The notes: generated by a model not told the origin, from the letters alone. A stretch of DNA of 64,000 nt from Candidatus Latescibacterota bacterium (GCA_965261395.1 OZ253462.1:6400001-6464000), one strand, 5' to 3'. Shown: positions 11,685 through 23,126, counted from the stretch's first letter. Numbers and translations: made by a program.

Positions 11685-14152
11685 TCACCCCAAGGTCGCT
11701 TCAACTCTGTGCCGCACGGTACGATCAACGCAGTAGGGTGAGCTTGCGCGTCAGGACGCCCTCGGTCGTTACCAGCCTATATAGGTAGATGCCGCTGGCC
11801 AGGGGGCGGCCCTCCTCGTCCTGGGCATTCCAGTGGAGGCGGTGATAGCCGGCCTGCTGCGGTCCTTGGCGTAAGACCGCCACCCGCTGCCCGATCACCG
11901 AGAACAGTTCTAGGCGCGTCGGCCCCGATTTCGGCAGGAAGTAGGAGAGGACCGTCTCGCTGTTGAACGGGTTGGGCACGTTCTGCTCAAGCTGCACCGT
12001 AGTTGGCTGGGCGGCTAGCGGCTTGGCACTGCCTTGTTCGATCTCGAAACGAAGGATCTCGGTAAAGTCCGCCAAGAACTTGTTTTGAGCTTTGTCCCAT
12101 ACCGTCATCTCAGCCAGCCCCCAAGTTCCAGGGACACTGCCTACCGGCAAGGTGATGGTGTACTCATACGTCTCGTACACCGTCGGATCGCCTTCAAAAT
12201 AGACCTTGTAATAGTCGTGCCGGTGATGCCTAAAAAAATGCTCTACGCCTTGGGGATCGCGTAAGTACATGTCGGTAGACCGATAGCCGCTGATATTGTC
12301 TTTGACTTTGAAGGTGATATCGACCCTCGTCTCTCCATTGGGAGTCTCCTTGTTAGTCGGTTCAGCCTCAATCGTGATGTTGTTTAGGTCGAGTGTGGGC
12401 CGTTGAGTATCCGGAGTGGTCGTCTGGATAGTGATAGAGGCCGGTTCTTCGTCAATGACTCGTTGCTCTTCTCTTAGCCCGTGTCCTGGATGGGTGAAGT
12501 ACACGCCACGGCCGTTGAGTGCAATATCTTCCATTATTATATAGTTGAGTTTCCACACGCCGCTGGGGAAGTAATCAGGAACCACCATATCAACAGAAGC
12601 GATCCCCGTTGCATGATCATAATCGCCCCAATTTTCTGAACGACGAGAAGCGGTCTCGGCGTCCCCATCGTTGAGCTGAGCCAACACTCCGTTTATGCCA
12701 TTGGCCTCAAAAAGCTTCCATTGAGCGGTCAATATCTGATACGGCCTCCCCGCTTCGGTGGCATCCCTGAGAGATAGCTCCATCGAATTCTTGACATAGA
12801 CCGGGGGGTCGGTGTCGGCGAGTGGATTGTCAATATACAACTTCCAACCAAAATCGGCCTGCGATTCGTGTCGTTCGTTGCCATGTCGGTCTGTAAGCGT
12901 GATCTGATCGGGTCGCCAGTAGCCATCAGCGATATACTTGGAAAGCGTGATCCTCCCGCGCAAGATATAGCCTATTTCAATGCGCCGGCCGTTGGTATCA
13001 ACAGGATCAAGCCAAAGATCAAAGAAGGTGCCTTTATCGCTGAAGATCCTCAGTTGAGACGCATCGACCAAGTCCAAGTCGCCCTCTTGGTGAAGCTCAA
13101 TTTCTATCGTTATCTCTTTATCTTCCTCCGGCTCGCCCTCGACTTGTATATCAACGCGCACGATTCGCCCCGGGTACACCACATCGGGATACAGATTGTA
13201 CACCTCAAAGGTCAGATCCTCACGAATCCGTGAGATATAGCGCGTCCCATGCATGATCCTGTTCTGTATGAACTCATACTTGGCGGGCGCTCTTGAGCGC
13301 AGCTTATCCGGCGTTACGATATAATAGCTGATGCTCTCGGCCATGTCCTCATCGGGATTTTTTGCATGGGCATAGGCAGAGACAAACTCGGTCTGCTTGG
13401 TCGTAGACCATCCCTCCTGGTCGCGCGAGCTGGCGAAACTTGCAGGGCCACCGGCTGAGGGTGCACAGCCTTGCTCAAGGACATCGAACAAGGATCCCGA
13501 TAAGAGGACCTCTTGACAGCGAGTGTCCTCTTCTTGCCCCTGGTCGGCTATGTTGCCATCGCTTTTATACCACCCTCCTAATTCGATCCAGTCTTGCTTG
13601 AGCTGCTCATCAAACAGATGCTCCCAGAGAAAGTGTGCCTTCTCGTGAAGGATCAAGCGGTGCATATAGGCTGGCCCAGACTCTTTGAAAGCTGATTCCA
13701 TGAACTCGATATAGCCTTCGGTTGTCCATGCCACCGCCGGCGCAGCGGGATAAAGAGGATGGGGTGTCCCATCTAGCCGGCGAACCAAGTAATTCAGACC
13801 GGCCGTATGACGCATTCCACTGGGAAACTCTTCCAGCATGGAGGCAATCGAAATCAGCTCTTCATTCTTGAATTCGGCGAAACGGCTCGAAGACTCCTTT
13901 GTCGTATTCTTTGTCAGCTCACGATAGTCCGGCACGTTCAAGCTGATGGCATAGCGCTCTTGCAATATACGTTCCAGCGCATGTCGATCGGAGCCATTAT
14001 CCGTTACAAACCGGACTACAGCACGATGGAGTCTTTTAGAAAAGAAACGCCCACGAACCCCTTCTATTTCAGCTAAAAGAGGTTCGGCGTAGGTGAAAGC
14101 CTCTCGGGCAACCGTTACGCGCCGTTGCCCATCCTCTACTGTGATCTGAATA

Positions 14153-15337
14153 GGCTTTGGTGCATGAATTGGTGTTTTTTTCGGTTGATCGGTTGAATAA
14201 AAACAGGCTCCTCAGTAGATTGAGCACGACTTTCGCCAAAAAACCCATGCTTTCTCGTCCAAGGAACCTGTCATGGCCAACCTATCGTCTTGCCCCTCTT
14301 CCGTCAAGCCTGGTCGCTCGCCTCGCCGTCGCTCCAACGTCGTGTACCGGGTACGTAATTGGGCCGACTATGAGGCCGGGCTGCAACAGCGCGGTAGTCT
14401 GACGGTGTGGTTCACGCCCCAGGCCGTCGAAGCTTGGTATTATCAAGGGCCGCCTCAGCGGGGGGCGCAATATACCTTTTCGGAGGTCGCCATCCAAACG
14501 GCGTTGACGCTGCGTCTTTTGTATCACTTGCCCCTACGCCAAACCGAGGGGTTTGTCGCTTCGGTGTTGGCCCTGATGGGCTTGGATCTGCGGGTGCCCG
14601 ATCACACGACCCTGTCGCGCCGTCAGGCGGGTTTAGCCGTGGCGTGGCCGCCCCAGCGGGGAGACCAACCGATGCACTTGGTGGTGGATTCGACCGGGCT
14701 GAAAGTGTATGGCGAAGGCGAATGGAAGGTGCGTCAGCACGGCTGGAGCAAGCGGCGCACGTGGCGCAAATTGCACCTCGGGGTTAATGAAGCCACCGGC
14801 GAGATCGTCGCGCAGACCTTGACGACGAATAGCCACGATGATGCGGGGCAGGTGGAGCCGTTGCTGGCACAGATCGAGGCCCCCGTGGAGGCGTTGGGCG
14901 GCGATGGGGCCTATGACAAACGCAAGGTGTTCAAGGCGTTGGCCGCGCCCGAGCAGGGGGCACCTATTCATCCGATCATTCCGCCGCGCAAGGACGCCAA
15001 AATCGAGCAACATGGCAACACCAACGCCGAGCCGTTGCCCCGCGATGAGACGATTCGAGCCATCCGCAAACGGGGCCGTCGAGGTTGGAAACACGAGAGC
15101 GGCTATCATCGACGCTCGGTAGCCGAAACGCAGATAGGCCGCTACAAACAGATACTTGGTGACACCTTGCGCACCCGAACCCTAACCAACCAACAGACCG
15201 AAGCGCGGTTGGGCTGTGCCTTGCTCAACCGGATGCGGGCGTTGGCGAAACCTGAGTCCTATCCGCTAACCAAAAAAGCGTAAATCACACGCGAAAGAAG
15301 CCAACACGGCCCCGACCGGTTTTCATGCAACAAAGCC
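14153..15337 (+). mobile_element. IS5 family (IS903 group) insertion sequence
   Basis: TIRs GGCTTTGGTGCATGAA / TTCATGCAACAAAGCC. 9-bp target duplication ATCTGAATA at 14144-14152 and 15338-15346. Confidence 0.95.
14273..15283 (+). CDS. IS5/IS903-group transposase
   Basis: RNWADYEAGLQQRGSLTVW, DSTGLKVYGEGEW, WRKLHLG, GDGAYD, GYHRRSVAE. Confidence 0.95.
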   Translation: MANLSSCPSSVKPGRSPRRRSNVVYRVRNWADYEAGLQQRGSLTVWFTPQAVEAWYYQGPPQRGAQYTFSEVAIQTALTLRLLYHLPLRQTEGFVASVLALMGLDLRVPDHTTLSRRQAGLAVAWPPQRGDQPMHLVVDSTGLKVYGEGEWKVRQHGWSKRRTWRKLHLGVNEATGEIVAQTLTTNSHDDAGQVEPLLAQIEAPVEALGGDGAYDKRKVFKALAAPEQGAPIHPIIPPRKDAKIEQHGNTNAEPLPRDETIRAIRKRGRRGWKHESGYHRRSVAETQIGRYKQILGDTLRTRTLTNQQTEARLGCALLNRMRALAKPESYPLTKKA

Positions 15338-15775
15338 ATCTGAATATCATGCTCTATATGGTCATCGCTTAATTCCCAAAAGGAAGGGACTACTTGGGGT
15401 TCATCCTCGTAAGAATCATTAGTATCCTGTGGTATAGATTCAAAAGTTCGCATCAAGCTATAGGCTTCTTGGGCCGTCCATGCGGTATCAAGATGGACAG
15501 AGTATTCCATCCTTAATTGCAAGGATGCACTGTGCGAAGTAACGTCCACGACTTCATCTAAAAGCTCTACCTGTACCGGCTCGATAAGGCTTGCGCTTTC
15601 AGTGCCGGAGATCGTCTCATCTATCTCCCAATGGTACGTATAGGCTTCGCTTTGGGAGGCTAAGACGCCAGACGCCAACGAGAAAACAACTGCGAGAGTG
15701 CGTATCATACTCAACCTGCTGTGTGATGGGTGATTAGCATGGACTTCTTGCCAAGATAGGAGATTCCCCTGTTAA

Positions 15776-16048: not shown

Positions 16049-16229
16049 GACCCATATTTATCCCAATGAACAGAAAGCCCCAAAGGGGCCGGGCCTGTTC
16101 ACGTTCCCACAGAGTTGTCAAGGAAAGTCTGCCTATTTACCTAGACAAAGGGAGCTACCCTCGTCGGATTCAAGGCTCTTGTATTTAGCAGAGGACCCGA
16201 CGAATCGGGACTCTGTGAGGAACATGAAC
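16049..16229 (-). ncRNA. Candidate structured leader RNA, copy B (family unassigned)
   Basis: Homologous to 22850-23037. The 5' end GUUCAUGUUCCUCACAGAG pairs with CUCUGUGGGAACGUGAAC. A sigma70-like promoter ends 6 nt upstream. Confidence 0.65.
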
Positions 16230-16235
16230 GTGTTA

Positions 16236-16264
16236 AGGGTACTAGCCGTTGTACAAAAAATCAA
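16236..16264 (-). promoter_or_regulatory. sigma70-like promoter (TTGATT-17-TACCCT) for RNA copy B
   Basis: Same 6-nt distance to the first stem base as the promoter of copy A. Confidence 0.5.
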
Positions 16265-16413
16265 GTTCTAACACACTTACTCTAAATTTCAAAATAGCCC
16301 ACTACCCAATTTCACTATAGCAACCCTGAAAGACTTGAACGATTCGAGATGCGGAGCGTCTTGTTTCTACTATTCTGCGTCCATCTGCGTCCATCTGCGG
16401 ATACAAAACGCAA

Positions 16414-17094
16414 CTACGCCAGCTTCTCGTCAGAAGCAATGCGCCCGTCGTGGATGCGGATCAGCCGCTTGGCCTGTAGGGCAATGACGGGATCGTGGGT
16501 CACCAACAGCACGGTGTTGCCCTCGTCTTGCAAGGTATCGAAGAGAATCATGATCTCCTCGCCGGTGCTAGAGTCGAGGTTGCCAGTCGGCTCGTCGGCC
16601 AACAGCAGCGAAGGTCCGTTGGCTAAGGCGCGGGCAATGGCCACCCGCTGACATTGGCCGCCGGACAGCTCAGTCGGGCGGTGCGTCATGCGGTCGGCCA
16701 AACCAACCCGCTCCAGCGCCTGCATCGCCCGTTCACGGCGCACCTTGCGGCGTTGGCCATTGTAAATCAGCGGCAGCTCGACGTTTTGCAGGGCCGATGC
16801 GCGCGGCAGCAAATTGAAGGTCTGGAAGATGAAGCCAACGCGGCTGTTGCGCACTTCGGCCAGCTCGTTGGCATTCATCCGCGACACATCCGTGCCGTCC
16901 ATGCGATACGTCCCATCCGTGGGCGAGTCCAAGCAGCCGAGGATGTTCATCAGCGTGGATTTGCCCGAGCCAGAAGGCCCCATCAGCGCGACGTATTCAT
17001 TGTCCCCAATCGCCAAATCCACCTCCCGCAAGGCATGGACCTCTTCGGTTCCACGCACGTAAACCTTGCTAATGCCATTCAGTTCGATCAGCAC
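16414..17094 (-). CDS. ABC transporter ATP-binding protein (MacB/LolD type)
   Basis: [35 protein letters not shown]. Likely GTG start at 17094 with GGAG RBS. Confidence 0.95.
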
Positions 17095-17098
17095 GAGA

Positions 17099-18322
17099 TC
17101 ACTCCGAGCGCAAAGCATCCACCGGATCGAGCCGCGAGGCGCGGGCCGCCGGATAGATGCCAAAGAAAAGGCCAATCGCAATGGACAGGGCCAGCACCAG
17201 CAGCGTGGCCTCTGGCGAAACAATGCTGGGAAAGTTCAATTCGCTGTAATGGGAAATGACGCGCGCAATGCCCTCGCCCAACCCGTATCCCGCAGCCACC
17301 CCCAGCGCTCCCCCCGTCAAGCTCAAGGCCATCGCCTCGATCACGAATTGCCACAGCAGCGTCACCGGCTTGGCACCGAGGGCCTTGCGGATGCCAATCT
17401 CGCGGGTGCGCTCGGCCACCGACACCAGCAAGATGTTCATAATGCCAATGCCCCCGACCAAAAGCGAAATCCCCGCAATCCCACCCACGACCAACTTCAA
17501 CAGCAAAATGGTCTGCTCGACCTGCTCGAGGATGCTGCGGCCGCTGATGATCTGATAGCTAGCCTCTGGGCCGTGGCGCTTTTTGAGCGCCTTTTCAATG
17601 GCAGTGGTAATGTGGGGAACGTCTTCTTGCTCCTTGGCGTGAGCTACCAAGCCTTGGATGAACTTGTTGCCGGCGAGGCGTCGCTGGGCCGTCGTCACCG
17701 GCACCAGCACTTGGTCTCCCCAATCCTCGCCAAAGGTCAGGCGATCCTCCATGAGGCCGACGACCGTAAAGCGCTGGCCGTTGAGCTTGAGCTCGCGGCC
17801 CAAAAAGGGAGCCAAGCCAAACACCTCCTCGCGCACCTTTTGCCCAATCACGCAGACCCGGCGCAGCTTGTCCAAGTCGGCGTTGATCAGGAAGCGACCC
17901 TCGGCCACCTGCCAGTTGTACACCTCGGCGAACTTGGGCAAGGTCCCGGCCGCCCTGCTCTGGTAGCTGGCCTTGCGATAGCGCAGATTGGCCCCATGCG
18001 TCATAGAGGGCAGGACCGCGGCTAAGCGGTCGGAGGACTGCTCGACTACGCGCAGGTCGTCCAAGGTCAAGGGCTTATAGCGGGGGTTGGGCACCCAGCG
18101 GCCGTCCTTGAGCTGCATGTATTGCGGCGTAATCATCACGAACTGCGCCCCGCCCAGCTTGCCAAACTCGTCAATGACAAACTGCCGCATCCCCTCGCCA
18201 ATGGACACGATGCCGACGACCGCGCCGACCCCAATCATCATGCCCAGCAAGGTCAGCGCCGTGCGCAGCTTGTTGACCCATATTTGCCCGAGGGCAATGC
18301 GGATGGCTTCGAGGAAGATCAC
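17099..18322 (-). CDS. ABC transporter permease (MacB/FtsX family)
   Basis: [16 protein letters not shown]...[28 protein letters not shown]...[15 protein letters not shown]. Confidence 0.95.
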
Positions 18323-19548
18323 GAGCGGCGCAGCGCTTCTACCGGATCGAGCCGGGCAGCGCGAAAAGCGGGATAGACGCCAAAGAAGATGCCCACCGCC
18401 GATGAAAAGCCGACGGCCCAGAGCACGGACTCAGCCGAGACAATGCTGGTAAAAGGCGCACCGGGCGCGAGCTGCTGAATGACGAAGGCCGCTCCCAAGC
18501 CAAAGCCGAAGCCGGTGAGGATGCCCAACAGACCGCCGACCATGCTCAAGACTACGGCCTCGGCGAGGAACTGGCCGAGGATGTGGCGCGGCTTGGCACC
18601 GAGAGCTTTGCGGATGCCAATCTCGCGGGTGCGCTCGGCCACCGACACCAGCAAGATGTTCATAATGCCAATGCCGCCGACCAACAGCGAAATCCCCGCA
18701 ATCCCACCGCCCACTTGCTGCAGGACGCGGAAGAACTCATTGGCGTCGTCTATCTGCCCCTCGCTGGTTTCCACCTCAAAGGCGTCGCCGTGCTCGTGGT
18801 GCCGCCGGAGGACGCGGCGCACCGCAGCGACGACCCGCGCAACGGCATCCAAATCCTCGACGAAAAGCGTGAGTTCCGAAAAGTGATCCACGCCTTGCAG
18901 CCGCTTTTGGGCCGTGGTGTACGGGACCAATACGATATTGCCCTCACTTCTGCCAAAGCGGACGCGCTCGTCGAGCACGCCAACGACCACGTAGCGGTCG
19001 CCGTTGAGTAGGATCTCCTTACCCAGCGGGTTGGCCCCCTGAAAGAGGCTTCCATACACATCGTCACCGAGCAGGCAGACCTTGCGGGCGAGGCGCAAGT
19101 CGTCCGCGCTCAGCGGCCGGCCACCGAGCACGGGCCAGTTGAAGCCCTCGTTGAACGCAGCGGATGTGCCTGTATAGCTCGCATCCACGGTGGTTTTGCC
19201 GCGCTGTAGCGCGGCACTGCCTTGAATCACGGGCACGAGCGCGTGCAACCCGTCGATTTCCCGCTGCATGGCCGCCATGTCGGCCTCGGTCAAGTACTCC
19301 TGCCAAGGCCGTCGCACCCAGCGGCCATCCTTGCGCACCCACTGGCGCGGCGGCTCCACCTGGATCATGCCCGCCCCGCCGCTGAAGATAAACTGCGAGA
19401 TCACTTGGCGGCGCAGCCCCTCCCCGAGCGACACCACCGCAATAATAGCCGCCACGCCAATGACAATGCCCAACAGCGTCAACAGCGAACGCAACTTATG
19501 CGCCCGGAGCTGGCCCAAGCCAGCGAAGAGGGGTTCGAGAACGGTCAT
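18319..19548 (-). CDS. ABC transporter permease (MacB/FtsX family)
   Basis: Same MacB_PCD plus FtsX motifs; paralog of the adjacent permease. Confidence 0.95.
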   Translation of the reverse strand: MTVLEPLFAGLGQLRAHKLRSLLTLLGIVIGVAAIIAVVSLGEGLRRQVISQFIFSGGAGMIQVEPPRQWVRKDGRWVRRPWQEYLTEADMAAMQREIDGLHALVPVIQGSAALQRGKTTVDASYTGTSAAFNEGFNWPVLGGRPLSADDLRLARKVCLLGDDVYGSLFQGANPLGKEILLNGDRYVVVGVLDERVRFGRSEGNIVLVPYTTAQKRLQGVDHFSELTLFVEDLDAVARVVAAVRRVLRRHHEHGDAFEVETSEGQIDDANEFFRVLQQVGGGIAGISLLVGGIGIMNILLVSVAERTREIGIRKALGAKPRHILGQFLAEAVVLSMVGGLLGILTGFGFGLGAAFVIQQLAPGAPFTSIVSAESVLWAVGFSSAVGIFFGVYPAFRAARLDPVEALRRS

Positions 19549-20837
19549 TAGCGTTCCTCGTCCTGCTCCTGCTCCTCGTCCTCGTCCTCGTCCTTCTGCT
19601 CCAGTTTGCTGCGAATGACGCTTGGGTCTTCAGCGACGCGGTCGCCACTGGCTAGGCCGGAGAGGATTTCGAGGCGGGTTGAGGTCTCAATGCCGATGGC
19701 TAGTTCCACCTCGGCGAAGGCGCTGAGAGGTAGTTGAAACGCGCTGTCTGGACGCGTGCTGTCCGGAACGGCGGCTAGCGAATCCGGCGACTGAGCGAGA
19801 TACGCGACAAAGCGGCCGCTCGTGCCCTCGCGCTCGTCTTCTTTGTCCTCGTCGTCAAAAACCTCCAGCACCCGCTCAACCGGCAGGTACACCGCGCTGT
19901 CGCGCCGCGCAAAGAGAATGTCGATGTCGCAGGACATGCCCTGGCGCAGGCGCGGCGCGTTGTCGGTAATCTCGATCTCGGTGTCAAAGGTGACGATGGT
20001 ACTGCCCTGCTTCTGCTGGCCCACGGGCGCAATCCAGCGCACCCGGCCGCTATACGCGGTGTCGGGATACGCATCCACGACAATGTCCACGTCTTGGCCG
20101 ACCTGCACCCGGCCAATGTCGATTTCCGCGATGTCGCCGCGCACGATCATCTGGCTGGGATCGCCGATTTCAAAGAGTACCGTTCCGCCCGAATACGACG
20201 AAAGCCCAGAGGCCACCACCTCGCCCACCTCTACGTCGCGGCGGATGACGATGCCGTCGATCGGGGCGAGGATGCGCACCTCGTCGAGCGCGACTTGGTC
20301 TGGCCCGAGTTGGTCGCTGTGCAGGTTGGCCTTGGCTTCGAGCATGTCGAGTTCGAGCTGGGCCAAGCGCAGGCTGGTGCGCACGCGCGTCAGACGCACC
20401 TCGGCTTCCTCAAATTGCTTGGCCGGCACCATCTTGCTGTCGAAGAGGGCCTTCTGGCGCGCGAAGTTGCGCTCCTCTTCCGCCAAGTTGATCTTGCCCT
20501 GCTCCACGTTCGAGCGCTTCTGATATAATTGCAGCGATTGATTGGGGTCTGGCTCGATGACCACCATCAGCTCACCCGTCTCCACCCACGCGCCGGCCTC
20601 TATGGGCAGGTCGCGGATTTCGCCGGCAATCGTCGATTTGACCTCCACGGTCCGCACCAACTCAATGCGACCCGTTTCGGCTAGCTTATCGACGACCGCG
20701 CCCCGCTCGACTAGCTCCGTGGCATAGGTCTCTTCGGTCTTCTCCTGCCGTAAGTTGAAATAGACCGCGGCCCCAACTGAGCCGGCCAAGAGCAAGAAGA
20801 CGAGGAGCTTCAAGAGGCCGCGCTTCTTGGTCGCCAC
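19548..20837 (-). CDS. Efflux periplasmic adaptor subunit (MacA/HlyD family)
   Basis: N-terminal TM anchor, IxAPIDGIV lipoyl half-motif, LRQGMS, LEILSGLASGD. Likely GTG start at 20837 after GGAGG. Confidence 0.9.
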   Translation of the reverse strand: MATKKRGLLKLLVFLLLAGSVGAAVYFNLRQEKTEETYATELVERGAVVDKLAETGRIELVRTVEVKSTIAGEIRDLPIEAGAWVETGELMVVIEPDPNQSLQLYQKRSNVEQGKINLAEEERNFARQKALFDSKMVPAKQFEEAEVRLTRVRTSLRLAQLELDMLEAKANLHSDQLGPDQVALDEVRILAPIDGIVIRRDVEVGEVVASGLSSYSGGTVLFEIGDPSQMIVRGDIAEIDIGRVQVGQDVDIVVDAYPDTAYSGRVRWIAPVGQQKQGSTIVTFDTEIEITDNAPRLRQGMSCDIDILFARRDSAVYLPVERVLEVFDDEDKEDEREGTSGRFVAYLAQSPDSLAAVPDSTRPDSAFQLPLSAFAEVELAIGIETSTRLEILSGLASGDRVAEDPSVIRSKLEQKDEDEDEEQEQDEER

Positions 20838-20838
20838 A

Positions 20839-21510
20839 TCAACCTCCAGGTCCGAGGGTGCTGAAGAATGCGCCGACGGCGAGGAAGATAAGCGTGATGG
20901 CCGCAACGCCTGCATAGGCGCGGCTGCGCTCTACCTGCCCGATGATAGCTAGCCCGAGGCCAGCGATGACCACCATCCAGATGCCAAAGGGATCAATGGA
21001 ACTCAATAAAGCTCCCCCGAAACTTTTTCGGGCCTCCTCGGAGAGAAACATCCCCAGCCCTATTTGTACCTTCATCGTCTCATTGGCTAAGACCAGCGGC
21101 GTCTTGACAATATGCTGGAGAATGGCAATCAGCGACGTGTACGCGACGATGACCAAGCACTGACCATAGCCGAGCAGGCCGCCGAGTAATCTACCTACCA
21201 AGAGGTAGATCGCAGCACCAATAAAGAGCATGACAAACGTCATAATCGGCGCGGCAATTAGCGAACTGACCTTTATGGCGGTTTGAGCTCCCTCCCGCTG
21301 GTCTGCGGGCATCTGCTGCGTCATCTCGGCCAATTGGACAGGTATGGTTAAATACGTGGAGATGAAGATCACCACCGCGACTAGCGCGGTCGGCACCAGC
21401 CAGTCGGCAGCACTGCGCTGCTCGCTTACGGCCTCAAAGGTCTCGGATGGAGCGTAGAAGACGCGCAACATGCGGCCGACGACGCTCATTTCTGCTTGGG
21501 GAGCTTCCAT
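20839..21510 (-). CDS. Yip1-family membrane protein
   Basis: VFYAPSETFEAV start, about 5 TM helices, SIDPFGIW motif; first gene of the ABC operon. Confidence 0.75.
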   Translation of the reverse strand: MEAPQAEMSVVGRMLRVFYAPSETFEAVSEQRSAADWLVPTALVAVVIFISTYLTIPVQLAEMTQQMPADQREGAQTAIKVSSLIAAPIMTFVMLFIGAAIYLLVGRLLGGLLGYGQCLVIVAYTSLIAILQHIVKTPLVLANETMKVQIGLGMFLSEEARKSFGGALLSSIDPFGIWMVVIAGLGLAIIGQVERSRAYAGVAAITLIFLAVGAFFSTLGPGG

Positions 21511-21700
21511 GGCGGTTCCTTTGTGTTAGGGGTGAGGTCTTTCGCCGACAGCGGCGAATGCTCCGTCCATGGAAGCAAATTAAGGGTTGCCTAGGACCTT
21601 TCCAAACAAATTCCCACAGGGTAATCACAAGGATTATCCCCACCCAATCGCCGTAGGAGCCGCTCTTGTGGCGACCCTCCGATCGTCCCCAACGGATCCG

Positions 21701-22690
21701 CTACAACCACTGTAACAAGAACCGAGCCTGTGCCTCCTCTAAGCTTAGCAAGCCCTGGACGTACTCGCGGATGCGCTTCAGCATGGCCGCCGGATCGTTG
21801 CACGCTCCCTTGAAGAACAAGACGCGCGTCGCTTCCCAACGCCGGCCTATGTCCCCAAAGGTATCGGCCGCAGCCGACAGGGCACCTAAGCCGGTTGCAG
21901 CCGCCAGCCGCCGCAGGTTGTCGTCCATCCGTCGGCGCTGAGGGCCGAGTAGGGATATCTGGCAGAACACCTCCCGCATCCAAACGCGCAGGCTCTCTTC
22001 GTCCTGCTCAGTCTGACGCTCTATCTCCTCGACAAAGCGCTGCGCGGCCGGCAGGCCCGTCTCTACCCGGCCGACCTTGTTGCCCGCGAGCATCTCCCGC
22101 ACATCCGCCAAGAGGACCTGCCCCATTTTTTTAACTGGATAAGGGTCGAGATCCTCGGGTACCGCGTAGTCGTACACCACCAGCTCGGGCAACATCTCGG
22201 ACAGACAAGAGAGCGGCACCCGCCCTACAAAGCCCTGTGGATTGACTAAGACCATCAACATATCCGCCGCTTGATCGTACCCGTAGATGAGCATGGCTTC
22301 GCTCGCGCCGGGGGTGCGATTGTAGCGAAAGGCCGCATCGCTTACATCGCGGGCATCCACCCAAGCGAGCAGCACCCGGTCTGCGGCAATTGACTCCTCA
22401 ATGGCCTGCCACAGGTCGGCAAAATTGTCGCGGCGCACCTCGCGGCGCTCAATTCCGTGGAGATAGTACAAATTGCGATGGATAAGCTCGTTGGCGGGCA
22501 GGCCGACTGGCATTCTCTCCTCGGCGTCAAAAAAGAACGACCAGCTCATCAAGGCCCCGTAGTACGCTCGCTCGTCGGCGAGCTGGGGGCTATGGTATTG
22601 GAGCGCGGCCATAATAGTCTCCCCAGGGGCGAACAACATAGGATCCCTCTCGACTCGGTATAGATTAACAGGGCGACGTACCTTTTTCAC
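21701..22690 (-). CDS. BtrH N-terminal-domain-like protein (papain-like fold) with helical C-terminus
   Basis: AIEESIAADRVLLAWVD...MLIYGYDQAAD and GLPAAQRFVEEI...E..A pattern. Catalytic Cys/His are not evident. Confidence 0.55.
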   Translation of the reverse strand: MKKVRRPVNLYRVERDPMLFAPGETIMAALQYHSPQLADERAYYGALMSWSFFFDAEERMPVGLPANELIHRNLYYLHGIERREVRRDNFADLWQAIEESIAADRVLLAWVDARDVSDAAFRYNRTPGASEAMLIYGYDQAADMLMVLVNPQGFVGRVPLSCLSEMLPELVVYDYAVPEDLDPYPVKKMGQVLLADVREMLAGNKVGRVETGLPAAQRFVEEIERQTEQDEESLRVWMREVFCQISLLGPQRRRMDDNLRRLAAATGLGALSAAADTFGDIGRRWEATRVLFFKGACNDPAAMLKRIREYVQGLLSLEEAQARFLLQWL

Positions 22691-22849
22691 GGTATCCTCA
22701 ATCGGTTAGGGTGAGTTGCCAAAGTCAGGGCAAGGCGCACATATAGAGTGGTCTAAAAAGGACTTCTGCTCTAGACAGCGGATGGGATGGTAATGAGCAA
22801 GTCGCCTTGGGCCGAGGCGGGCTTTCACCGCGCCTTCAGGCGTGAACAT

Positions 22850-23037
22850 GACCCATCTCCTTTGGAGAAGGGAACAGGAGGCCCCCGAAGGGGCCGGGCC
22901 GTGTCCAACATTCCCTGCAGAATGCAGCGATGTCTCTACCTATTCACCAAGGCGGAGGGAGCGACCCTTCGCCGGGTTTCGGCTATTGTATTAAGCAGAT
23001 AACCCGACTAAGGCGGGATCTGCAAGGAATGATGGAC
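22850..23037 (-). ncRNA. Candidate structured leader RNA, copy A (family unassigned)
   Basis: Closing stem GUCCAUCAUUCCUUGCAGA / UCUGCAGGGAAUGUUGGAC. Internal core conserved with copy B, with compensatory changes. Lies between a terminator plus promoter and the BtrH-like gene. Confidence 0.65.
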
Positions 23038-23043
23038 AGCCTG

Positions 23044-23073
23044 AAGATAGGGGGAGATGGTCACTGGCGACAA
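23044..23073 (-). promoter_or_regulatory. sigma70-like promoter (TTGTCG-18-TATCTT) for RNA copy A
   Basis: Sits just downstream of the terminator and 6 nt before the closing stem. Confidence 0.5.
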
Positions 23074-23096: not shown

Positions 23097-23126
23097 AAAA
23101 AAAACCAGCCCCTTGGCGGGGCTGGT
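23097..23126 (-). terminator. Rho-independent terminator after the DUF1854 gene
   Basis: Minus strand reads ACCAGCCCC-GCCAA-GGGGCTGG followed by T8. Confidence 0.9.

Follow-up and report, generated by a model that had tools for sequence, protein, structure and literature searches.

The 64,000-nt stretch of Candidatus Latescibacterota bacterium that was analysed here (GCA_965261395.1 OZ253462.1:6400001-6464000; hereafter the window, to which all coordinates refer) carries two copies of a structured RNA element, copy A at 23038-22893 and copy B at 16229-16088, both on the minus strand. They belong to a large RNA family that is absent from Rfam 15. With about even confidence, each copy was read as the mRNA 5' leader of a new, mobile, cis-acting, riboswitch-like family of the ON type, in which ligand binding is putative. 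A preliminary description of this DNA had proposed an unassigned, structured, riboswitch-like leader RNA family whose copies have their own promoters; absence from Rfam, covarying helices and co-orientation with downstream genes supported that proposal.

The two copies with a shared core were read on the minus strand at 23038-22850 and 16229-16049, and the GGCCCGGCCCC hairpin, CUGUUC and AUGGGUC that had been described 3' of the core were found in place. Copy A folded at -90.6 kcal/mol (z = -4.70) and copy B at -75.8 kcal/mol (z = -4.68); none of 200 shuffles of either copy was as stable. The closing stems are, as described, unrelated in sequence, and each pairs (19 bp in copy A, 18 bp in copy B). 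The inner helices first drawn, GUCGGGUU/AACCCGGC and UCCGCCU/AGGUAGA, do pair in both copies, but they are limited to the window's genus and are not conserved in the family. Minimum free energy (MFE) folds and RNAalifold of four window-genome copies had likewise suggested a helix GUCGGGU/ACCCGGC, as drawn at the outset, but distant members lacked its 3' strand; it was therefore dropped and the model was rebuilt.

Two covariance models were used, R1, built with that helix, and R2, rebuilt without it; model E-values are rough and the genome samples are not independent. BLAST and R1 located four copies in the window genome (6.55 Mb, 95% complete), and R2 added a fifth, diverged copy (C1:1449376-1449528, minus strand, locus L208, 50.5 bits); the five were scattered over 6.5 Mb and formed no array. 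Matches to R1 were present in 47 of 61 genomes of the same class, at 1-9 copies each. An exact-pattern scan with one genome per species returned at least 119 stretches, of which 80 were listed, all of them records of metagenome-assembled genomes (MAGs), and R1 confirmed 84 matches in these 80 loci. The listed loci bore titles of Latescibacterota, Gemmatimonadota/Longimicrobiales, Binatia, Nitrospirales, orders of Acidobacteriota, Rhodothermales, Alpha- and Gammaproteobacteria, Dehalococcoidia, 'Ca. Poriferihabitaceae' and others, and among the matches listed were named MAG records from more than ten phyla. Other phyla were also multi-copy (1 to 10 RNA copies per genome). The proposed covariance-model search thus retrieved many further members, and chance resemblance of the two window copies was excluded because the models find the element at hundreds of other places.

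The distribution is patchy across lineages. In a sample of the window's phylum, 62 of 151 genomes carried the element; three families concentrated it (24 of 63, 19 of 30 and 17 of 19 genomes) and ten other families had none in 37 genomes. A sample of 151 genomes from the order of a Bryobacterales MAG gave 35 carriers. Even samples, also of 151 genomes, gave four in the family of a Rhodobacteraceae-titled MAG and two, one of them a weak match, in the class of a gammaproteobacterial MAG. The hosts are apparently marine sponge symbionts, as judged from titles such as 'Candidatus Poriferihabitaceae', from isolate labels of some MAG records that we take to be those of sponge MAG sets, and from a published list of phyla. 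That list stands in the part of PMC8163846 that gives the sampled sponge species and the phyla characteristic of sponge microbiomes, and the taxa given there as sponge-typical are those with the element.

The proposed comparison with Rfam 15 gave no match at the gathering score in the 64-kb window. At E≤10 both copies gave chance-level matches only, the best one touching the element scoring 12.9 bits against a gathering score of 45, and at E≤1 no match was found in seven loci of other lineages. Literature searches at title level gave no account of this RNA or of RNA-bearing IS1595 cargo, although supplements may list such motifs.

The folded RNA is about 150 nt long. From 5' to 3', the promoter is followed by the 5' strand of helix P1, a joining strand with CCCG, the segment GUCGGGU, the 5' strand of P2 (CCUGCU), the loop GAAUACAAnA and the 5' strand of P3 (GCCnn); then come the variable hairpin P4, with a tip that is often GGG-UAGCU-CCC, the 3' strand of P3, the loop GAAUA and the 3' strand of P2 (GGCAGG); and these lead through a joining strand of 12-20 nt to the 3' strand of P1, 1-3 nt and GCCCGRC running into a hairpin. 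Family counts were based on 135 hits (74 plus 61), the 61 being the 84 listed matches less 23 in loci with labels beginning Latescibacter, a phylum already sampled. Near-identical duplicates were removed before P1 energies, leaders, alternative pairings, signal peptides and orientations were counted. The inner helices were assessed on a MAFFT alignment, fitted to no structure, of 68 non-redundant elements (alignment A8: 68 of the 123 hits with a downstream CCCGRC, selected for a length of 140-175 nt and similarity below 0.8).

Covariation supported P1, P2, P3 and P4. In the inner helices P2-P3-P4, 87.9% of cells were paired compared to 80.8% in shuffles, and 19 of 27 pairs showed changes on both sides. 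The covariation score was 0.311 against 0.190 for shuffled alignments (reached in 0 of 500), and slid partners scored 0.04-0.10. Double changes were seen in five of six P2 pairs, four of five P3 pairs, all four pairs of the P4 tip and all five of the P4 base, the last being paired in just 65%; many G-U pairs fix the strand of these helices. P1, which is 13-24 bp long (median 17.5 bp), had a mean duplex energy of -28.2 kcal/mol compared to -11.6 kcal/mol for shuffles, and 109 of 111 unique elements were at or below -15 kcal/mol. Cognate P1 strands averaged -27.7 kcal/mol and non-cognate strands -13.8 kcal/mol; -20 kcal/mol or lower was found for 65 of 68 cognate and 55 of 680 non-cognate pairs. 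Hardly any variation is seen in GUCGGGU and GCCCGRC, which are complementary to each other.

The position of the leader is that of a riboswitch: 5' untranslated and on the same strand as its gene, with a promoter before P1, co-orientation, and a Shine-Dalgarno sequence (SD) and start codon behind it. Canonical sigma-70-type -35 and -10 boxes lie just 5' of the element in many phyla. In both window copies the -10 box was confirmed 6 nt 5' of the stem G that had been taken as the first (Table 1), and across the family it ends 3-7 nt before the first P1 base pair (mode 5 nt, 21 of 68 elements); the transcript is therefore predicted to start at the foot of P1. The orientation to genes was non-random, as had been anticipated. 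The longest open reading frame (ORF) 150-450 nt downstream shared the strand of the element in 93 cases and opposed it in 18, and 13 cases had none, whereas upstream control frames were evenly divided (52 same strand, 55 opposite).

ORF starts and signal peptides were called by simple rules, the hydropathy rule being cruder than SignalP. A downstream ORF was present for 127 of the 135 hits, and most of these ORFs start 65-105 nt after the core behind an SD. On clustering, 75 remained singletons and 14 small clusters formed, some with members from more than one phylum. Pfam named a minority of 81 representatives: outer-membrane beta-barrels, surface antigens, collagen, leucine-rich repeat (LRR) and Sel1 repeat proteins, CsgG, glycosyltransferases and a nuclease. 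A hydrophobic, signal-peptide-like N-terminus was found in 39 of 49 unique nearby ORFs compared to 22.7% of 3077 window-genome ORFs (binomial p ~5e-17), and a lipobox in 12 of the 49 compared to 5.4% of the background. The leader usually precedes a gene for an exported protein.

The RNA-plus-gene cassette is sometimes the cargo of a transposon, which provides a route for its spread across phyla. A 2.42-kb unit (L113 2144-4563; also L107, L124 and L147) occurs at least four times, at 99.9-100% identity, in a Nitrospirales MAG; between its 22-nt terminal inverted repeats lie, in this order, an IS1595-family transposase gene, the promoter with the RNA and a gene for a family-25 glycosyltransferase. 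The 32-nt inverted repeats of a second unit, in a 'Ca. Poriferihabitaceae' MAG (L161 5344-7911), flank the promoter with the RNA, a lipoprotein gene and a convergent gene for the transposase. Of 154 loci, 26 had an IS1595-like transposase gene in the flanking sequence that was fetched, and in a Bryobacterales MAG (G064) one lay within 1.5 kb of six of ten RNA copies. The window genome has only two IS1595-like genes, each more than 80 kb from all five RNA copies. The RNA is neither the transposon itself nor bound to a transposase. Passenger-carrying IS1595-family elements are the 'transporter IS' (IS, insertion sequence) of ISfinder usage, and the units described here share with them a DDE_Tnp_IS1595 transposase, terminal inverted repeats of 22-32 nt, one cargo gene and identical multi-copy units; they differ in that the cargo has a conserved promoter and a structured leader, and most RNA copies, including the five of the window genome, are not transposase-adjacent.

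Some leaders appear to contain a switch-like platform. The MFE fold of the whole L068 leader is a long terminator rod ending in U8 that excludes P1; the partner of the P1 3' strand in this rod is a second, downstream copy of the 5' strand, and that of the joining strand is the segment preceding the eight U. In L163 the MFE fold pairs the joining strand J2/1 and the P1 3' region over the SD. Pairing of J2/1 plus the P1 3' strand with the pre-ORF region was stronger than in shuffles, with z below -2, in 25 of 81 leaders, and z was below -3 in 13; 15 of the 25 pair to within 11 nt of the start codon. A T run of at least five preceded the start codon in 35 of 121 leaders. Where visible, the terminator-type and SD-type platforms agree in these models: a closed P1 would mean that the gene is on, because the P1 3' strand otherwise joins a terminator or covers the ribosome-binding site, and the same logic may apply in vivo. 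A switch between P1 and downstream pairing as a universal property of the family was not supported, since it was significant in those 25 leaders alone.

The proposed mechanism runs as follows. Transcription would start at the sigma-70-type promoter a few nucleotides before P1, and P1 would enclose the C-rich joining strand, the invariant GUCGGGU and a rod of nested P2, P3 and P4. The almost invariant loop GAAUACAAnA/GAAUA is the putative binding pocket. After P1 would come GCCCGRC and its hairpin, then the ribosome-binding site of the gene. The core may bind a small ligand, either widely available or specific to the habitat, that favours the P1-closed fold; in the alternative fold the P1 3' strand and the joining strand before it would pair downstream, giving an intrinsic terminator or a covered ribosome-binding site. 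Since the family has spread across phyla, a trans factor should already be in every recipient, and most simply this would be a small molecule. GUCGGGU and GCCCGRC could pair either as a pseudoknot that coexists with P1 by way of two long joining strands or as a competitor of the local GCCCGRC hairpin.

Several observations weigh against a ligand-responsive switch. With a median of 17.5 bp and about -28 kcal/mol, P1 greatly exceeds its counterpart in known riboswitches in both length and stability, and its formation by default is to be expected. No significant alternative pairing was found in 56 of the 81 leaders, including most members from Binatia and Alphaproteobacteria. The pairing of GUCGGGU with GCCCGRC was compensatory in L081 and L058 and disrupted in L151 and L057; its frequency of 99.6% is not independent evidence, because it was obtained in a set selected for having CCCGRC. 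The first long ORFs in the window start 244 and 419 nt past the core, beyond the usual 65-105 nt. The downstream genes, being 75 singletons and 14 clusters mostly without a Pfam family, give no metabolic clue. Finally, cyclic di-GMP (c-di-GMP) and cyclic di-AMP (c-di-AMP) were rejected as common ligands; both are unlikely because the synthases are absent from most motif-bearing genomes (GGDEF in one of six, DAC in two of six).

The regulon does resemble those of cyclic-dinucleotide riboswitches. No GGDEF match was found in the window genome (the control matched in 8 of 14 genomes), and GGDEF was present in one of five other motif-bearing genomes, whose completeness is not given. DAC was present in the window genome and in one of the five others. 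The window genome had no match to a class III nucleotide cyclase domain. A scan of the whole window genome with RF01051 gave no match, but its control likewise gave none, so this result says little. The c-di-GMP-I and -II riboswitches (GEMM; RF01051) control varied surface, secreted and hypothetical proteins, and the new RNA likewise occurs in several copies per genome before such genes; unlike GEMM, it had no model match in the window and its host genome no GGDEF match. With the ydaO c-di-AMP riboswitch it shares a link to envelope-related genes and, as an impression only, a pseudo-symmetric look of the loops; it differs from ydaO in having no Rfam match and in the limited occurrence of DAC.

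A close parallel in switching logic is with the adenine riboswitches pbuE and add, which are of the ON type, a closed P1 preventing a terminator or freeing the ribosome-binding site. As in these, a conserved aptamer-like core is closed by P1, the 3' strand of which has a competing downstream partner, and, as in other ON riboswitches, terminator-type and SD-type platforms occur within one family. The differences are that P1 has only a few pairs in pbuE and add, that the fold of the new RNA is unrelated and matches no Rfam model, that its competing pairing reaches significance in no more than 25 of 81 leaders, and that its ligand is putative.

Because P1 is so long, two rivals, a protein partner and a constitutive stabilising or processing module, stay alive. 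A leader that binds a protein or a second RNA in place of a metabolite, with the same two folds as readout, is unlikely; an antiterminator, a translational repressor or a regulator linked to the envelope or to secretion would be examples of such a partner. A long, stable P1 with a purine-purine mismatch conserved in the CUGCGUGA / UCArGCAG part of many members would suit recognition by a protein better than a pocket for a metabolite, and an exported-protein regulon is more like those of envelope or secretion regulators than a metabolic one; against this, a partner for an element that is transposon-borne and found in more than ten phyla must be universal or co-travel, and no conserved neighbouring regulator gene was seen among the 81 representative downstream ORFs. 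We consider similarly improbable a portable expression module without a sensor, in which a strong promoter and a 5'-terminal helix stabilise the mRNA, or a cut by RNase III sets its 5' end. A helix of 13-24 bp matches in size both RNase III substrates and 5'-stabilising elements like the ompA leader, and here the transcript would start at the foot of one. Near-consensus TTGACA-17-TAnnnT promoters in distant phyla, the presence of the element as cargo inside IS1595 elements and the 56 leaders without significant alternative pairing also agree with such a module. A stabiliser, however, needs no invariant loop, GUCGGGU, GCCCGRC or covarying P2-P3-P4 rod, and it would leave unexplained why P1 has competitors in the form of terminators and SD-sequestering helices.

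A gene for a trans-acting small RNA, the downstream genes being mere neighbours, is very unlikely: although the element has its own promoter, a hairpin follows directly on the structured part and the next long ORFs in the window are distant, a U run rarely follows that hairpin, an SD and start codon stand 65-105 nt past the core in most members, the co-orientation with downstream genes is strong and one class of downstream protein is enriched. Least credible, and largely refuted, is an element acting at the DNA level, be it a miniature inverted-repeat transposable element (MITE), an integron attC-like site, an IS end or a gene for a transposase guide RNA. The long inverted repeat around a conserved core, the several copies per genome and the IS1595 transposase beside 26 of 154 loci fit such an element. 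Its repeat arms, however, differ between copies of one genome and covary, its G-U pairs lie on one strand only, the dispersed window-genome copies are all at least 80 kb from the two IS1595-like genes, the IS has separate terminal repeats of its own, the geometry to the transposase varies (same strand, or convergent with an intervening gene), and 128 of 154 loci have no IS1595-like transposase. A MITE, named earlier as the finding that would overturn a regulatory RNA, was rejected: the stems differ among the window-genome copies, non-cognate stems do not pair, and the flanks are a fixed promoter and GCCCGRC instead of duplications. An attC site was dismissed because the five scattered copies each have a promoter before their gene (the core-site consensus was compared by eye), and a transposon guide RNA because 128 of the 154 loci lack an IS1595-like gene in the flanks fetched and two geometries occur among the rest. 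The IS110 bridge RNA and the IS200/605 omega RNA are also structured RNAs near a transposase gene; the new RNA is unlike them in that its position and orientation are unfixed, a gene often lies between, the variable helix pairs with itself and the transposase is a DDE enzyme.

If the riboswitch-like reading holds, a new structured regulatory RNA class with hundreds of members, present in no catalogue, would follow, in bacteria that are uncultured and about whose regulation very little is known. Its targets (exported, lipoprotein, LRR, Sel1 and collagen-like proteins) are thought to mediate life inside a host, and the patchy spread over phyla together with carriage on transposons would represent a regulatory RNA module that moves horizontally with its cargo, which is rarely documented. 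If a ligand exists, its identity would name a signal read by very different symbionts; if none does, the element would be a natural broad-host-range expression cassette. It is doubtful, though conceivable, that the family is a riboswitch for a sponge-holobiont signal, host- or community-derived, which switches on surface, secreted and eukaryote-like proteins in the host and has spread with its cargo by IS1595-type transposons among more than ten phyla. Were this so, the element would act as a mobile switch, common to all of them, that says 'you are in the host'.

Table 1. Features of copies A and B in the window, with the evidence for each.
Feature	Position	Strand	Basis
Copy A -10 box TATCTT	23044-23049	-	Read; family TAnnnT position 3-7 nt before P1
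Copy A P1 5' strand	23019-23038	-	RNAduplex -32.3 kcal/mol vs -14.4 shuffled; MFE fold
Copy A J1/2 UCCCGCCUUA, with conserved CCCG	23009-23018	-	Sequence, alignment
Copy A near-invariant GUCGGGU (segment 2), complementary to downstream GCCCGGC	23002-23008	-	Alignment
Copy A P2 5' strand UCUGCU	22994-22999	-	R2 alignment; covariation 5/6 pairs
Copy A conserved internal loop, 5' side UAAUACAAUA	22984-22993	-	Invariant/near-invariant columns
Copy A P3 5' strand GCCGA	22979-22983	-	R2 alignment; covariation 4/5 pairs
Copy A P4 hairpin GGCGaAGGG-UCGCU-CCCUcCGCC	22951-22973	-	Covariation, R2 alignment
Copy A P3 3' strand UUGGU	22946-22950	-	Covariation, R2 alignment
Copy A conserved internal loop, 3' side GAAUA	22941-22945	-	Alignments
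Copy A P2 3' strand GGUAGA	22935-22940	-	Covariation, R2 alignment
Copy A J2/1	22922-22934	-	Sequence, RNAduplex
Copy A P1 3' strand	22902-22921	-	RNAduplex
Copy A GCCCGGC (segment 3, 22899-22893) into hairpin GGCCCC-UUCG-GGGGCC (22895-22880)	22880-22899	-	Sequence, fold
Copy A CUGUUC (22877-22872) and hairpin UCUCC-AAA-GGAGA (22868-22856)	22856-22877	-	Sequence, fold
Copy A first long downstream ORF, weakly BtrH_N-like	21701-22690	-	Pfam search
Copy B promoter: TTGATT (16264-16259), 17 nt, TACCCT (16241-16236)	16236-16264	-	Read
Copy B P1 5' strand	16211-16229	-	RNAduplex -29.6 vs -9.9 shuffled; fold
Copy B J1/2 UCCCGAUUC (16210-16202) and GUCGGGU (16201-16195)	16195-16210	-	R2 alignment
Copy B P2-P3-P4 domain	16128-16192	-	R2 alignment, covariation
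Copy B P2	16192-16187 with 16133-16128	-	R2 alignment, covariation
Copy B internal loops	16186-16177 and 16138-16134	-	R2 alignment
Copy B P3	16176-16173 with 16142-16139	-	R2 alignment, covariation
Copy B P4	16165-16144	-	R2 alignment, covariation
Copy B J2/1 (16127-16115) and P1 3' strand (16114-16097)	16097-16127	-	RNAduplex
Copy B GCCCGGC (16094-16088), hairpin GCCCC-UUU-GGGGC (16089-16077), CUGUUC (16073-16068)	16068-16094	-	Sequence, fold
Copy B downstream ORF, signal-peptide-like start, apparently truncated	15259-15714	-	Pfam/ORF scan

The UCUCC-AAA-GGAGA hairpin described for copy A was located as listed in Table 1, and CUGUUC of copy B is complementary to the end of the P1 3' strand of that copy. 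The BtrH-like gene reported after copy A did give a BtrH_N match, but at 20.1 bits, under the Pfam cut-off of 29.7; genes for Yip1, HlyD, two MacB-type permeases and an ABC ATPase follow it as far as 16414. The 160 nt that separate this gene from copy A (22690-22850, minus strand), with a CGCCUGAAGGCG hairpin, are kept across sister genomes; the short AUG-initiated frame inside them is not. A conserved leader peptide after copy A was rejected, the AUG of AUGGGUC not being retained in sister genomes. Before the copy A promoter, a strong hairpin with U8 (CCAGCCCCG-loop-CGGGGCUGG-UUUUUUUU; 23097-23126, minus strand) ends the upstream DUF1854 gene, and copy A therefore begins a separate transcription unit.

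The 'secreted HExxH protein' placed after copy B proved to be a signal-peptide ORF (15259-15714), and the weak metallopeptidase match belongs to a separate ORF of 746 aa (11725-13965, minus strand), in which Peptidase_Mx and FlgD_ig match weakly. An IS5-family transposase gene (DDE_Tnp_1_5, DDE_Tnp_1; 14273-15283, plus strand) lies between these two minus-strand ORFs, and its insertion seems to have split the gene downstream of copy B.

Elsewhere, tandem pairs of elements were observed in L041 (1401-1466 and 1501-1582) and L155 (6416-6499 and 6535-6621), the first of each pair being degenerate in its 5' half; each pair is followed by the gene of a large secreted protein that matches DUF6851 and FlgD_ig and, weakly, VCPO_2nd and Por_Secre_tail. 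The diverged L208 copy of the window genome has a degenerate GAAUACAA loop and lies upstream of a gene resembling the one behind these tandem copies. One exact pattern match was found among viral contigs, but R2 did not confirm it and the site is inside a phage coding region, so that a phage origin was rejected. In L140 (5764-5847), L135 and L155, which are titled Gemmatimonadetes or Gemmatimonadota, the elements, like the genes downstream, differ very little from those of the window's relatives (for example 95.6 bits, equal to L024-L028), and this likeness reflects either recent transfer or contigs that were binned or labelled differently. Upstream of the copy B promoter, at about 16375-16400 on the minus strand, there is a short tandem repeat with units of about 10 nt (cagatggacg).

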